A stretch of 64,000 nucleotides of DNA, taken from positions 6,196 to 70,195 of the forward strand of contig JAPPGP010000044.1 in NCBI GenBank assembly GCA_028821395.1, written 5' to 3'. This DNA comes from Defluviicoccus sp. GTDB lineage: Bacteria > Pseudomonadota > Alphaproteobacteria > MPNO01. The translations under genes were made by a program, and so were the position numbers. Below the pieces are notes generated by a model. It did not search any database. It saw only the letters and a list, made by a program, of their open reading frames with translations, and was not told where the DNA came from. Positions 4,032-15,651 of the stretch are shown here, piece after piece. Each line of letters opens with the position of its first letter. Within the stretch, counting starts at the first letter, position 1.

Positions 4032-4061
4032 TCAAGCGCGCCGCCGTGACAGCCCGCGCCG
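4032..4061. repeat. Left copy of the imperfect direct repeat flanking the low-GC islet
   Basis: TCAAGCGCGCCGCCGTGACAGCCCGCGCCG matches 5431-5460 at 26 of 30 positions. The perfect 17-nt core is GCCGCCGTGACAGCCCG (4040-4056). Confidence 0.5.
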
Positions 4062-4231
4062 ACATCCCCGTAGTCGGGCGGCGTCAAACGTCCACGAGGC
4101 GCCCCCGTGGAACAACGGCGAGAATTGGACACCGCCGAACAGATGGCAGGCATGTCTCGGGGGACGATCAGGACAGGGCTGCGCTACCGGTAGCTGGCAT
4201 CCCGGTCCGGTTATCCAAGTGGTCAGTCCGC

Positions 4232-4666
4232 TTATGAGCGGCGGTCTGGAGGATTGTTTGGAGGTTCTAGGTAGCGGCGGACGTAGTGGGTACCGAGACC
4301 GACGACGGCACCGCTCAATATGAAGTCCTTGATCCTTTGGAGTTCGTCAGGATCAAGCCATCGCGCTTTAGCACCAACCACCAGGTGCCAACCTAGCGTG
4401 AAAATACATGCGGCAGCCACGAACAATACCAGACCCGCCAGAAACCTCATCCAGCCTGCGAGCAGTGACCGCATCTTCTGTTCTCGGTCGTGCTCGCCCT
4501 TTACGCTCTCCTTATAAAAGTCGCGTTCTTCCTTCTCGGCATCGGTCTTCCCGGTCGGTACGGGAAAGCGGCCCCTGGGCGTTGGCGTTGGGGTGGGAGT
4601 CGGAACGGTTCTTGGCTGTCTGCCCGGTGGTCTAGGCGGCCCGGATCCGGGCGGCTGACTACTCAT
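4232..4666 (-). CDS. Small membrane protein of unknown family (Pro-rich N-terminus, charged segment, one strong TM); candidate toxin partner of the Panacea-domain gene
   Basis: 144 aa: MSSQPPGSGPPRPPGRQPRTVPTPTPTPTP... then LLAGWMRFLAGLVLFVAAACIFTLGWHLVV. Its ATG (4664-4666) lies inside the last codons of the upstream gene, giving an 8-nt overlap. Local GC content is low. Confidence 0.6.
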   Translation of the reverse strand: MSSQPPGSGPPRPPGRQPRTVPTPTPTPTPRGRFPVPTGKTDAEKEERDFYKESVKGEHDREQKMRSLLAGWMRFLAGLVLFVAAACIFTLGWHLVVGAKARWLDPDELQRIKDFILSGAVVGLGTHYVRRYLEPPNNPPDRRS

Positions 4667-5120
4667 CCTCAGCGGCTAAGCCTGCGTAGTGCTCTTCGAT
4701 CAGAGAATTCGGGATGATCGTGTTGCGCCCGTGCTCGTGCCAAATTCTGTGCCACGGCGTTCCGGGCTCGTGCGTGATCTGGGAAAGTTGAATCCCGGAG
4801 AAATCTTCATAGGCTCTATAGACCTGCTGCACCAGATCGCTTTCGATGAAGTCTAGCTCGGCTTTGGGAAAGTCGATCGGGGTCGTGATCGGCTTGCGAC
4901 CATGGACTTTTACCTCGTGGTATACGTCCGGGATGACGGGACCATATTGCCATGCCTCGGCTGGCTGAGCGGAGAGCGGCTGATGGTAGAGACCCAGCAT
5001 CCAGCCGTGACACAGGTAGGTCAGCTTTACCACTTGCAGCGGCGTGAGGGGGCGTTCATCCTGAATGCCCATTTGAATCAGGAGGTTAGCGATACCACGA
5101 GCATCATGTGCATCGGCCAT
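4659..5120 (-). CDS. Panacea / DUF4065 (SocA-like) domain protein, antitoxin-type
   Basis: 153 aa with the DUF4065-like pattern LQVVKLTYLCHGWMLGLYHQPL..AEAWQYGPVIPDVYHEVKVHG....LSQITHEPGTPWHRIW. It lies in the low-GC islet. Confidence 0.8.
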   Translation of the reverse strand: MADAHDARGIANLLIQMGIQDERPLTPLQVVKLTYLCHGWMLGLYHQPLSAQPAEAWQYGPVIPDVYHEVKVHGRKPITTPIDFPKAELDFIESDLVQQVYRAYEDFSGIQLSQITHEPGTPWHRIWHEHGRNTIIPNSLIEEHYAGLAAEDE

Positions 5121-5127
5121 ATCGAGC

Positions 5128-5156
5128 GCGCTAGCAGACTTTTTTTCTCATGTCAA
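5128..5156 (-). promoter_or_regulatory. Possible promoter of the islet operon; would give a near-leaderless mRNA
   Basis: The minus strand reads TTGACA (5156-5151), 17 nt, then TAGCGC (5133-5128), followed 7 nt later by the ATG at 5120. No SD precedes that ATG. The -10 element is weak. Confidence 0.25.
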
Positions 5157-5430
5157 GTATTTCCTCGACAATTCAGCGCCATGTTCGTCAGAAAATCACG
5201 GCGTCCTCGAATCATCAGGATGGGCCTTGGTCGGTTGATGGGTGGCTGGTGGCCGTCCACGGGCATAGCTTGCTTCCCTGCCTGAACCCCGTGAACGCGC
5301 ACTGCGGCTCACAGTCACGATATAGGGTAGACGCAAGCCCGGCAACAGAGGCCGTCACGCTTCTGTGAAGCGCCGAAGTCTTCGTCATGCCGGCTCACCC
5401 CGCCGATGGGGCACCATTCTACATGGGCTC

Positions 5431-5460
5431 CCAAGCAAGCCGCCGTGACAGCCCGAGCCG
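5431..5460. repeat. Right copy of the imperfect direct repeat flanking the low-GC islet
   Basis: CCAAGCAAGCCGCCGTGACAGCCCGAGCCG matches 4032-4061 at 26 of 30 positions. Confidence 0.5.
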
Positions 5461-5505: not shown

Positions 5506-6711
5506 ATGGACGCGCCCAGACACGACCTCGCCGCGCTCGACACCGACACTTGGCTCGCCCGGGTGGCGGAGGCCGGCCCGGTCGTCGAGGCGCTGGCGCC
5601 CGAGGCCGACCGCGCCCGGCGCCTGAGCGACGCGGCCATGGCGGCGCTGCACGACCAGGGGCTGTTCCGTCTGCTCCTGCCCATCGCCTATGGCGGCGCG
5701 GAGATGACGCTTCCCGTCTTCCTGCCGGTGGTCGAGGCGATAGCCCGCCACGACGGCAGCGCCGCCTGGTGCGTCGCCCAGGGCAATGGCTGCGCCTCGC
5801 TCGCCGGTTTCCTCGAACCCGCTCTGGCGCAGGAGATCTGGGGGCGGGACCCCTCCGCGGTGCTCGCCTGGGGGCCCGGCAAGGCCGAGGCGCGCGCCGT
5901 CGACGGCGGCTATGCCGTGACCGCGCGCACGAACTTCGCGAGCGGCAGCCACCATGCGACCTGGATCGCCGCCCATTGCACCGGGCTGGAGGCCGACGGC
6001 ACGCCGAGGCGCGATTCGAGGGGCGAGCCGGAGATCCGCACCGTCCTGGTCCCCGCCGGCACCGTGACGCTGTCCGACGGCTGGGACGCGGTGGGGCTGC
6101 GCGGTACCGGCAGCGACGGATTCGCCTGCGACGGCCTGTTCGTGCCCGAGGAGCGGACCATCGTCCGCGCCACGATGATCGACGACCGGCCGGCGATCTC
6201 CTCGCTGCACGGCATGCCGCTGATGTCGGTCTACGCGATCGGCTTCGCCGCCGTCGCCCTCGGCATCGCGCGCGGCCTGTTCGATGCCTTCGTCGCGCTG
6301 GCGCAGGAGAAGCGCCCACGCGGCGCCCGTTTCACGCTCAAGGAGAACCCGGCGGTGCACGAGGAGGTCGCCCGCGCCGATGCCAGGATCCGCGGCGCGC
6401 GCGCCTTCCTGGTCGAGGCAGCGGAGGCCGGCGCCGCCGATCTCGCCGAGGCGGGCCGCATGTCGGTGGACACGCTGATGACGATTCGGCTTGCCGGCAC
6501 GCATGCGATCGGCGAGGCTAAGGCGGCCACGGGCCCGCTCTTCGACACCGCCGGCACCAGCGCGGTCATGGCATCCAGCCCGTTCGAGCGCCGCTTCCGC
6601 GACATCCACGCCGTCGCGCTGCAGATGCAGGCGCGCAAGACCCACCTCCAGACCTGGGGCTCCTGGGCGCTCGGCGGCACGGTGACCTCGGACGGGGTGA
6701 ATGTGGGCTGA
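5506..6711 (+). CDS. Acyl-CoA-dehydrogenase-fold flavin-dependent monooxygenase (HsaA/HpaB-C2/DszC-like)
   Basis: 401 aa with SD GAGAGG. The ACAD-like layout includes LFRLLLPIAYGG, GYAVTARTNFASGS, GLRGTGSD and a C-terminal helical domain. Confidence 0.8.
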   Translation: MDAPRHDLAALDTDTWLARVAEAGPVVEALAPEADRARRLSDAAMAALHDQGLFRLLLPIAYGGAEMTLPVFLPVVEAIARHDGSAAWCVAQGNGCASLAGFLEPALAQEIWGRDPSAVLAWGPGKAEARAVDGGYAVTARTNFASGSHHATWIAAHCTGLEADGTPRRDSRGEPEIRTVLVPAGTVTLSDGWDAVGLRGTGSDGFACDGLFVPEERTIVRATMIDDRPAISSLHGMPLMSVYAIGFAAVALGIARGLFDAFVALAQEKRPRGARFTLKENPAVHEEVARADARIRGARAFLVEAAEAGAADLAEAGRMSVDTLMTIRLAGTHAIGEAKAATGPLFDTAGTSAVMASSPFERRFRDIHAVALQMQARKTHLQTWGSWALGGTVTSDGVNVG

Positions 6712-13045: not shown

Positions 13046-13810
13046 TCAATGCGGGACGTCGGACCAGATCGCGCGCTTGACCGCGTACAGCATGCCGGTG
13101 AGCAGGATCAGGAAGAGCACGATCTTGACGCCCATGCGCTTGCGCTCCTCGAGCTCGGGCTCGGCGGCCCAGACGAGGAAATTGGTCACGTCCTTCGCCA
13201 TCTGGCTCACCGTCGCCTCGGTGCCGTCGGCGTATTCCACCTGGTCCTCGCTCAGCGGCGCCGGCATGGCGATCTGATGGCCCGGGAAGTAGGCGTTGTA
13301 TTCCATGCCCTCGGACATCTCCATCTCCGCCGGCGCCTCCCGGTAGCCCACCATCAGCCCGTAGAGGTAGTCGGGGCCGCCGATGCGCGACTTGGCGACC
13401 AGCGACAGGTCGGGCGGGAGCGCGCCGTTATTGGCGGCGCGCGCGGCGTTGTCGTTGGCGAACGGCGACACGAACCGGTCGCTCGGCCGGGCGGGGCGGT
13501 CGAACATCTCGCCCTCGGCGTCGGGGCCGTCGGCGACCTCGACCTCGGCGGCGATCGCCTTCACCTGATCCTCGGAGAAGCCGATCTCGGTCAGATTGCG
13601 GTAGTGGACGAGGCGCAGCGAATGGCAGGCCGCGCAGACCTCGGTGTAGACCTGGAAGCCGCGCCTGAGCGCCGCCCGGTCGAAGGCGCCGAACAGCCCG
13701 TCGAAGGTCCACTTCATGCTCGGCGGGGCGACGGCGTCGGCGGCGGTGGCGGCCGGGCTCGCGCCGATCACGACGAGCGCGGCGAGGATGGCGCGTGCGG
13801 TCCGCCTCAT
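13046..13810 (-). CDS. petC: Cytochrome c1 of the bc1 complex
   Basis: 254 aa from ATG 13810 with a signal peptide, the CAACHS heme motif and a C-terminal TM anchor. The start overlaps the petB stop (ATGA). The ORF-track frame 13046..15889 is an artefactual extension. Confidence 0.9.
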
Positions 13811-15087
13811 TGCGCCTTCTCCATCGGCTGCGGCGCCGCCGCCGGCGGCCCGGCGCTTCCTCCCAGCACCGGCTCGGCGATGCTGGTCGGCAGCGGGCGC
13901 GGCGTCTCGATCACCGAGAGCAGCGGCATCAGGATCAGGAAATGGGCGAAGTAGTAGAGCGTCGCGACCTGGCCGATGATCACGAACATGCCCTCGGGCG
14001 GGTTGCCGCCGACCCAGCCCAGCACCAGGCAGTCGATCACCAGCACCCAGAAGAGCTGCTTGTAGATCGGCCGGTAGCGCGCGCTGCGCACCGGCGAGCG
14101 ATCGAGCCAGGGGACGATGAACAGGACCAGGACGGAGCCGAACATCGCGACGACGCCGAGCAGCTTGGCCGACAGGAACCAGATGTCGAAGGTAATCGCG
14201 CGGAGGATCGCGTAGAACGGCAGGAAGTACCATTCGGGCACGATATGCGGCGGCGTCAGCAGCGGGTTGGCCGGAATGTAGTTCTCCGGCTCGCCGAAGA
14301 AGTTGGGCGCGAAGAACACGAATCCCGCGAAGATCGTCAGGAACGCGCTCAGCCCGAACATGTCCTTGACGGTGTAGTAGGGGTGGAAGGGGATCTTGTC
14401 CTGCGGCCCCTTGGCGTCGATGCCGAGCGGGTTGTTCGAGCCGTGCTGGTGCAGCGCGATCAGGTGCAGGGCGACCACGCCGACGATCACGAAGGGCATC
14501 AAATAGTGCAGGCTGTAGAACCGGTTGAGCGTCGGGTTGTCGACCGTGAAGCCGCCCCACAGCCAGGTCACGATGGTGTCGCCGACGATGGGTATCGCCG
14601 AGAAGAAATTGGTGATCACGGTCGCGCCCCAGAAGCTCATCTGGCCCCAGGGGAGCACGTAGCCCATGAACGCGGTGGCCATCATGCAGAGCAGGATGAC
14701 CACGCCGAGGATCCACAGGATCTCGCGCGGCGACTTGTAGGAGCCATAGTACAGCCCGCGGAAGATGTGGATGTAGACGATGGCGAAGAAGGCCGAACCG
14801 CCGTTGGTGTGGATATAGCGGATCAGCCAGCCATAGTTCACGTCGCGCATGATGCGCTCGACGCTGTCGAAGGCGTGGTCGACATGCGGCGTGTAGTGCA
14901 TCGCCAGCACGATGCCGGTCACGATCATGATGACCAGCACGATCCCGGCGAGCGAGCCGAAATTCCACCAGTAGCTGAGATTGCGCGGCGTCGGGTAGTC
15001 GATCAGCTCCTTCTCGGCGAAGGAGAACATCGGCAGGCGGTAGTCGATCCACTGGACCAGGCGGTTCTTCATCCAGGGCTGCGGCAT
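13807..15087 (-). CDS. petB: Cytochrome b
   Basis: 426 aa with [23 protein letters not shown] and [13 protein letters not shown], all classic cytochrome b motifs. Confidence 0.95.
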
Positions 15088-15099
15088 GGACCTTCCCCC

Positions 15100-15651
15100 C
15101 TAGCCGATGCGCACGAGGCTGTCGGACAGGAACTCGTAGGACGGCACCGCCAGGTTCTCCGGCGCGGGCCCCTTGCGGATGCGTCCCGACGTGTCGTAGT
15201 GCGAGCCGTGGCAGGGGCAGAACCAGCCGCCGAAATCGCCCTTCCTGTCGCCCGTCGCCTGCCCCTTGGGGATGCAGCCGAGATGGGTGCAGACGCCGAC
15301 CACGATCAGCCATTCCGGCCTCTTGACCCGCTGCCCGTCCGACTGGGGATCGGGCAGGTCGTCGAGCGCGACCGCCGCCGCCTGCTCGATCTCGGCCTCG
15401 GTCCGGCGGCGGACGAAGACCGGCTTGCCGCGCCACACCACGGTGATCGATTGCCCGGCCTCGATCGGCGACAGGTCGACCTCGGTGGTGGCCAGCGCCA
15501 GCGTGTCCTTGGCCGGGCTCATCTGGTGGATCAGCGGCCAGAGCGCGACCGCGCTGCCCGCGGCGCCGAACGCGCCGGTCGCCAGATAGAGAAAATCGCG
15601 GCGCGTCTCGCCGTGGCCGTCGCCGGCCCTGGTGTCCTCGGAATCCGCCAT
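15100..15651 (-). CDS. petA: Ubiquinol-cytochrome c reductase Rieske iron-sulfur subunit
   Basis: 183 aa with a Tat-like TRRDFLY motif and the Rieske boxes CTHLGC and CPCHGS. Confidence 0.95.

Follow-up and report, generated by a model that had tools for sequence, protein, structure and literature searches.

A probable PanA-PanT toxin–antitoxin module with a divergent T12-type membrane toxin on an inserted low-GC islet of Defluviicoccus sp.

We analyzed a 64,000-nt stretch of the genome of a Defluviicoccus sp. (Alphaproteobacteria; assembly GCA_028821395.1, contig JAPPGP010000044.1, positions 6,196 to 70,195 of the forward strand), hereafter the window, in which two overlapping minus-strand genes, panA and panT, encode a Panacea-domain protein and a small proline-rich membrane protein. 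We consider it probable that the pair constitutes a two-gene PanA-PanT toxin–antitoxin module with a T12-type membrane toxin. The genes and their junction are as follows.

4659 to 5120, minus strand: panA, Panacea-domain antitoxin gene, 153 aa, without an N-terminal helix-turn-helix (HTH) or PAD1 extension.
4232 to 4666, minus strand: panT, small membrane protein, 144 aa, assigned by sequence comparison to the T12-type PanT family, within which it is divergent.
4659 to 4666, minus strand: start/stop overlap ATGAGTAG, read from the sequence and pointing to translational coupling; the same 8-nt overlap is found in two related cassettes (L001 and L002).

The preliminary description of this DNA had assigned the upstream gene to the DUF4065/Panacea type, and this assignment holds. 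The motifs KLTYLCHGW, EAWQYGPVIPDVY and ITHEPGTPW are all present, and PanA matches Pfam PF13274 (SocA_Panacea) with 59.6 bits against a gathering cutoff of 25.7, over residues 31–124 and profile positions 2–113 of 113. Its best NCBIfam match is the SocA_antitoxin equivalog (92.5 bits, E = 2.3e-26), the cutoff of which (190) is not reached, and a PHROG profile search matched it to phrog_1281 (E = 7e-36), the PHROG families matched by PanA being families of unknown function. A PDB sequence search with PanA returned no match. The open reading frame (ORF) coordinates, the strand and the junction reported earlier were all confirmed: at GAGGATGAGTAG, the panT ATG (4666–4664) and the panA TAG (4661–4659) share an 8-nt overlap (gap −8 nt).

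The layout given earlier for the partner protein was also recovered. Residues 1–39 of PanT form a Pro/Thr-rich N-terminus with 14 prolines, TPTPTPTP included, and are followed by a charged segment (residues 40–67; 8 K/R, 9 D/E), a strong hydrophobic helix (residues 68–97; Kyte–Doolittle maximum of 2.36 over 19 residues) and a C-terminal part of 47 residues after this transmembrane (TM) helix. Compared with related cassettes at a synonymous divergence (dS) of 0.6–2, the ratio of nonsynonymous to synonymous substitution (dN/dS) was 0.06–0.09 for panA and 0.21–0.24 for panT, with values of 0.14 for the TM and C-terminal part and 0.44 for the Pro-rich N-terminus. Because dN/dS is far below 1 for both, panA and panT are real, constrained protein-coding genes under purifying selection.

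Searches of Pfam, NCBIfam, PADLOC and PHROGs with PanT gave only noise and no significant model match, and the partner had been described as unclassifiable and the pair as a candidate new type. That claim fails on comparison with the published clusters. Kurata et al. 2022 (PMC8832971) sorted Panacea-associated toxins into 88 clusters and validated three membrane toxins, and their Dataset S1 lists YP_003344834.1 / YP_003344835.1 (D11S_2261 / D11S_2262) of Aggregatibacter phage S1249 as a T12 pair. In hmmsearch, the phage toxin YP_003344835.1 (114 aa) scored 64.9 bits against a 38-sequence profile of the broad PanT family and 37.0 bits against a profile of the window's eight-member subfamily only, corresponding to estimated E values of ~1e-12 and ~2e-4 on a scale where 53 bits is ~3e-9 in 1.84 billion sequences. 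Pairwise BLASTP aligned the window PanT with the phage protein end to end (22% identity, E = 4e-7), and hhalign with the same protein gave a probability of 96.7% (E = 4.4e-10). The aligned T12 columns include motifs outside the TM helix, namely EH.RD, H.L.P..W.[FW]L..QL..I..F and Y..R. As a negative control, the partner of a Shewanella plasmid PanA (L032), which is alike in size and layout, scored 7–10 bits and an hhalign probability of 2.9%; it was rejected as a PanT relative, its architecture being alike with no detectable homology. Since this similarly built protein fails to score, the T12 match is not an artefact of composition.

On these alignments we assign the window PanT, a divergent representative and a predicted single-pass membrane protein, to the published T12-type PanT family. 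At 22–26% identity, a FlaGs analysis could set the window subfamily apart as a sister cluster beside T12. What is new, as far as the homology indicates, is a rare, divergent, Pro-rich subfamily; its kind, a PanAT with a T12-type toxin, is already known, and no new toxin class is implied. The phage T12 protein itself gave only noise against the four profile libraries (no Pfam match), and all its relatives in Haemophilus, Pasteurella, Actinobacillus and Avibacterium carry the label "hypothetical protein", which explains why neither the libraries nor the preliminary description could place PanT.

Relatives of PanT were collected at two depths, close homologues by a word-indexed search of 5.8 billion proteins and the broad family by a full HMMER profile search of 1.84 billion cluster representatives. 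The first search returned 7 homologues, all metagenomic. The second returned 674 representatives at E ≤ 1e-3, of which 102 reached E ≤ 1e-10; almost all have 100–135 aa and share the layout of PanT; these representatives are clustered at 50% identity, and 674 is a lower bound on family size. The close subfamily was absent from GTDB species representatives, IMG/VR, JGI metagenomes and plasmids, the plasmids being searched by tblastn. Fourteen related loci extend far enough upstream to be judged, and every one has a Panacea gene, or its recognizable C-terminus, immediately upstream of the partner on the same strand: close loci (L001–L007, L009 and L010), distant loci (L023, L024 and L025/L026, at 21–26% identity to the window PanT) and L027 (43%). 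The gap between the Panacea gene and its partner ranges from −17 to +67 nt, and the neighborhoods and flanking genes differ between loci. Both computable checks on the toxin–antitoxin reading thus came out in its favor: PanA exceeds the DUF4065/Panacea threshold, and homologues of the small protein adjoin a Panacea gene in every examinable locus. Pairwise identities of PanA and of its partner co-vary (Spearman 0.82 over 45 locus pairs from ten loci), so PanA and PanT are best regarded as a stably co-inherited pair, neither chance neighbors nor the product of a recent partner swap.

Several of these loci show features of their own. In L011 (110–430), the PanT homologue P0007 breaks off after GLGT, without the conserved C-terminal end, and is directly followed by a gene for a DDE_Tnp_1 transposase (494–1267), so that this panT homologue appears to have been truncated by insertion of an insertion sequence (IS); the true N-terminus of P0007 extends upstream of its called start. 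The PanA of L027 (3322–4011) has 229 aa, with an extension of ~75 residues before the conserved AHDARSIA start that is not an HTH by precomputed Pfam annotation and may be either a new N-terminal domain or a miscalled start. Genes for IS1595-family and rve-type transposases, joined in L024 by a DNA methylase gene, are found within 1–2 kb of the cassettes in L004 and L024 (L004 2479–3417; L024 1914–2855 and 4240–5342); these neighbors fit mobile or defense-island settings. L025/L026 resemble phage or plasmid DNA. The assembly labels of the contigs with close homologues (NGUY21, ENGE20, PANK22) and the name of the host-relative metagenome-assembled genome (MAG) RHO2_bin_2 resemble those of marine sponge microbiome studies, so that the close PanT subfamily may be sponge-symbiont-specific.

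The closest characterized systems are PanATs with T12 toxins. Like the window pair, the T12 PanATs of Bartonella apis and phage S1249 have the Panacea gene first, the usual order at PanAT loci, and the toxin gene overlapping it or close behind. T12 toxins resemble the window PanT in length (~110–145 aa) and in having a single TM helix between a charged N-terminal region and a conserved C-terminal helix. The window PanA is 34% identical to the PanA of phage S1249. What sets the window subfamily apart from the phage T12 toxin is a Pro/Thr-rich N-terminal extension of ~30 residues and a near-invariant SGAVVGLGT core; only a few metagenome contigs are known to carry this subfamily. The T12 pair of phage S1249 (L035, 32592–37036) adjoins repressor genes and lies ~2 kb downstream of an Abi-alpha-like abortive-infection gene. 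The validated T3 membrane toxin of E. coli STEC O31 (WP_000287252.1 / WP_000019185.1), likened here by description only, has the same gene order and a charged N-terminus followed by the TM region. T3, which includes a Shewanella member, and T12 are possibly homologous according to the authors of the cluster analysis (PMC8832971). The L032 Shewanella plasmid partner, whose membership of T3 is unverified, shares the T3-like layout and has no significant similarity to the window PanT. Besides PMC8832971, no paper citing the T3 or T12 accessions was found.

More distant systems share single aspects with the module. The type VI system SocAB of Caulobacter crescentus has its antitoxin domain in common with the window PanA, SocA being the founding Panacea protein; it differs from the window pair in that SocA is a ClpXP adaptor and its partner SocB, of cluster T10, is unrelated to T12. 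The type I toxins HokB and TisB are proteins of fewer than 60 aa that are controlled by antisense RNA and have no protein antitoxin. They have no sequence relationship to the window PanT and resemble it in its predicted action, that of a small inner-membrane protein collapsing the membrane potential; HokB served as a comparator for membrane PanTs in the published assays (PMC8832971).

A different Panacea pair was encountered in a search of E. coli genomes that used plasmid PanA loci of Shewanella and E. coli as probes. Its partner is a soluble 139-aa protein unrelated to the window PanT, and it occurs in a chromosomal P22-like prophage (L034, 1201–2068), with a P22 gp16-type ejection-protein gene on one side and the Arc and tailspike genes on the other, and also on a plasmid of 4.1 kb (L028, 1435–2302). 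The pair is present at ≥95% identity in 48 of 5,426 complete genomes, with another 34 at 60–80%; in one of the latter (L033), PanA is 72% identical and no gene is annotated in the ~800 nt directly downstream. Neither of the two is the T3 toxin pair.

The predicted structure of PanT is a helical hairpin. An AlphaFold2 (AF2) model based on a 38-sequence alignment reached a mean predicted local distance difference test score (pLDDT) of 79.5, an earlier run with 8 sequences having been poor (pLDDT 62), and shows helices 42–97 and 106–133 joined by a short loop. The first predicted helix is the charged segment continuing into the TM helix. The second carries the best-conserved stretch of the subfamily, IKDxILSGAVVGLGT.Y.RRY, which is rich in small residues and of moderate hydrophobicity. 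In the eight-sequence subfamily alignment, of which the window protein is one member, 24 positions are invariant, and PanT keeps all of them. Foldseek searches of the PDB and BFVD with the better model found no relatives, a two-helix hairpin being a weakly informative query, and a PDB sequence search with the PanT family profile gave only noise (best E = 0.14).

Within the disordered N-terminus, residues 18–24 (PRTVPTP) are an instance of a short motif, [RK]x(0-1)[VI]PxP, that also stands near the start of P0028, P0029, P0033, P0035, P0040, P0045, P0060, P0080 and others. The strict pattern matches 35 of 182 proteins examined, and the local confidence of the AF2 model rises at the motif. This [RK]x[VI]PxP element could be a candidate docking site for PanA.

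Upstream of panA, one further feature can be read from the sequence.

5128 to 5156, minus strand: promoter-like site, TTGACA (5156–5151), a 17-nt spacer and TAGCGC (5133–5128), ending 7 nt before the panA ATG.

The panA start codon is preceded by ...GCTAGCGCGCTCGAT-ATG, confirming the reported lack of a Shine–Dalgarno sequence. The geometry of the promoter-like site is kept in three diverged cassettes as TTGACA-N17-TA(G/A)C(G/C)(C/G)-N7/8-ATG, with TTGACA-N17-TAACGC-N7-ATG in L001 and TTGACA-N17-TAGCCG-N8-ATG in L004, whose PanA is 58% identical to that of the window. Because this geometry, 7–8 nt from the ATG, is common to all three, the earlier suggestion of a leaderless panA transcript gains support. 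A simple sigma-70 scan did not list the putative panA promoter, owing to its weak −10 hexamer. At the start of panT, the ATG follows GAGG without a gap, and ribosomes are therefore more likely to reach panT by termination–reinitiation at the ATGAGTAG overlap.

The two genes lie on a low-GC islet, which the preliminary description took to fit a mobile module and whose boundaries and ends were defined as follows.

4057 to 5438, minus strand: inserted low-GC islet carrying the whole module, 1,382 nt, with flanks that are contiguous in 10 relatives.
5439 to 5455, minus strand: left copy of the 17-nt direct repeat CGGGCTGTCACGGCGGC, on the host side, next to an acyl-CoA dehydrogenase-like gene.
4040 to 4056, minus strand: right copy of the 17-nt direct repeat, exact, next to the upstream region of the DctP gene.
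5211 to 5266, minus strand: decayed small upstream ORF, recognized by a tblastn match (PPATHQPTKA) to an ORF of L001, with a frameshift and a deletion of ~112 nt relative to L001.

The GC content of the islet is 0.59–0.61 against 0.65–0.75 around it, and it includes the lowest-GC kilobase of the window (0.598 vs ~0.70). The 17-mer CGGGCTGTCACGGCGGC occurs twice in the 64 kb even when 2 mismatches are allowed, with 0.18 occurrences expected. Eleven related Defluviicoccus-like MAGs were compared, with DctP protein identities of 88–97% for ten and 79% for L020; by this flanking gene the host is itself a Defluviicoccus-like alphaproteobacterium. In 10 of the 11 (L012–L019, L021 and L022; ~5885–5915) the site is unoccupied: the DctP and acyl-CoA-dehydrogenase-like genes are direct divergent neighbors, separated by a ~165-nt intergenic region with a single copy of CGGGCTGTCACGGCGGC or a close variant. 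Window sequence from 5432 upward and from 4057 downward maps to adjacent or overlapping positions of this intergenic region. Read against these empty sites, the islet is a genuine insertion, with the 17-nt repeats at its ends and the vacant site in 10 relatives.

Other candidate signals at or near the islet were set aside. A BLAST-detected imperfect duplication of ~70 nt at its right end is marginal, being reached by 25 of 500 shuffles, and only the exact 17-nt repeat is claimed. The second-lowest-GC kilobase (14–15 kb; 13807–15651) was rejected as a further islet; it holds the cytochrome b gene of a Rieske/cytochrome b/c1 (bc1) operon. The window contains no tRNA genes, so a tRNA did not serve as the integration target. 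An Rfam scan returned only a sub-threshold nadA-riboswitch hit at the right end of the islet (4058–4119, plus strand; 23.9 bits vs 37.5, E = 0.013) and an isrL fragment, both treated as chance.

The insert contains only panA, panT and the decayed small ORF, and within its 1,382 nt there are no integrase, transposase, recombinase or phage genes. In related cassettes the small ORF is intact and encodes 47–56 aa (MTKRAKRVFDPP...AAVLRG; L001 803–973, L004 45–188, L007 145–288); its start-codon context GGGAAGCAAGC(T/C)ATG is kept in the window, and its product has no Pfam match. It may be an accessory third gene of the cassettes. Homology between the window, L001, L005 and L007 starts within ~10 nt of the left junction of the window while the flanking genes differ, which hints that the cassette may be a discrete unit inserted at several sites; these contigs do not extend far enough for their right ends to be seen. 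Because the target also has the 17-nt core, 10 relatives have the site vacant and the left end is common to at least three unrelated contexts, we weighed whether the 1.4-kb panA-panT unit might itself be a minimal, recombinase-less mobile cassette that inserts through this core, which we regard as unlikely. Were it so, an integrase acting in trans would move the unit, the toxin–antitoxin pair would be both its sole cargo and its addiction device, and the unit would be comparable to an integron cassette, or to a cis-mobilisable element (CIME), pared down to a toxin–antitoxin pair.

The same data bear on whether the module is instead an inactive relic of a larger mobile element, kept only through its recent arrival. 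The frameshift and partial deletion of the small ORF, the lack of a recombinase on the islet, the IS-truncated toxin-gene homologue in L011 and the extreme rarity of the subfamily (7 homologues among 5.8 billion proteins, with empty scans of GTDB representatives, IMG/VR and JGI metagenomes) are in line with decay. Both main ORFs are intact, however, PanT retains the 24 subfamily-invariant positions, conservation extends to the 8-nt overlap and the promoter geometry, and dN/dS is well under 1 for both genes against cassettes at a dS of 0.6–2, so that we hold a relic to be highly improbable.

We propose the following mechanism for the PanA-PanT module. A promoter ~7 nt before the panA ATG would yield a leaderless bicistronic mRNA, from which translation of PanT would require ribosomes completing PanA at the ATGAGTAG overlap; as ribosomes would have to finish PanA there, no toxin would be made without antitoxin. 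PanT would enter the inner membrane via helix 68–97, with its Pro-rich and charged N-terminal part (net charge +4) probably in the cytoplasm, and the conserved C-terminal helix (IKDFILSGAVVGLGTHYVRRY), with its many small residues, would pack back on the TM helix and probably mediate oligomerization. The validated T12 PanT of B. apis (PanA / PanT pair WP_077993240.1 / WP_077993242.1) is pore-forming, depolarizing the membrane and admitting SYTOX Green, and is neutralized by its own PanA (PMC8832971). Free PanT of the window would likewise dissipate the membrane potential and may form pores, and growth would stop. PanA would neutralize PanT by direct cytoplasmic binding, as in type II systems.

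Several considerations count against this reading of the pair. The T12 homology was established with a single T12 sequence, YP_003344835.1; identity between the window PanT and the phage member is just 22–26%, and the Pro-rich N-terminal extension of the window subfamily is missing from the phage protein. The −10 element of the putative promoter is weak, and decay of the small upstream ORF in the window could signal a degenerating module. Of 25 predicted PanTs screened by Kurata et al. in E. coli, 8 showed no toxicity, and for another 5 the toxicity was not rescued (PMC8832971). Pull-down binding of PanA and PanT covers five pairs, none with a membrane toxin (PMC8832971), and direct-binding neutralization of a membrane PanT is therefore an extrapolation and the weakest step of the mechanism. 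Finally, PADLOC-DB 2.0 gave no match for PanA or PanT at E ≤ 1 and nothing favoring a defense role.

The neutralization step also admits a SocA-like, type VI version of the same genes, in which PanA would be a proteolytic adaptor delivering PanT to a protease such as ClpXP. SocA, the ClpXP adaptor of Caulobacter, has the Panacea domain, SocA_antitoxin (E = 2.3e-26) is the best NCBIfam match of PanA, stable complexes are not shown for any membrane PanT in PMC8832971, and the disordered Pro-rich N-terminus of PanT could act as a degradation handle. Yet the equivalog score of 92.5 bits falls far under the cutoff of 190, the partner is a T12-type membrane protein whereas SocB belongs to T10, and ClpXP and Lon were not needed for neutralization in the assays of Kurata et al. 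(PMC8832971). We judge proteolytic delivery quite unlikely.

Alternatively, PanT could be no growth-arresting toxin at all, and instead a membrane anchor, sensor or holin-like effector that PanA would regulate in a phage-related function, for instance superinfection exclusion or lysis timing; the two genes would then form a phage moron. The size and layout of PanT, with one TM helix and charged ends, are holin-like; the T12 pair of phage S1249 occupies a lysogeny-side accessory region downstream (~2 kb) of the Abi-alpha-like gene, PanA matches PHROG families of unknown function, L025/L026 are phage- or plasmid-like, and the non-toxic fraction of the E. coli screen (8 of 25; PMC8832971) would suit such a role. 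The PanT family profile, however, found nothing in 2.9 million viral contigs, the PHROG library or BFVD structures, the window copy sits on a 1.4-kb islet without phage genes, and the sole tested T12 member is a classical toxin neutralized by its PanA (PMC8832971). A moron of this kind thus seems very unlikely. Under the preferred toxin–antitoxin reading, the role of the module is most likely either stabilization of its small mobile islet or abortive infection, a function in phage defense or abortive infection being speculation.

The window provides a clean before/after case for the arrival of a PanAT: 10 relatives have the site empty, and in the window an insert of only two genes stands between exact 17-nt copies. 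The long-range co-divergence of PanA with its T12-type toxin contrasts with the partner swapping stressed for Panacea. The T12-type PanT family is large, with at least 674 representatives, yet has no Pfam, NCBIfam, PADLOC or PHROG model, and the present alignments could seed one. As judged from homology, the T12-type family extends into a rare Pro-rich subfamily of Defluviicoccus-like alphaproteobacteria, and the picture of PanAT systems is otherwise unchanged.

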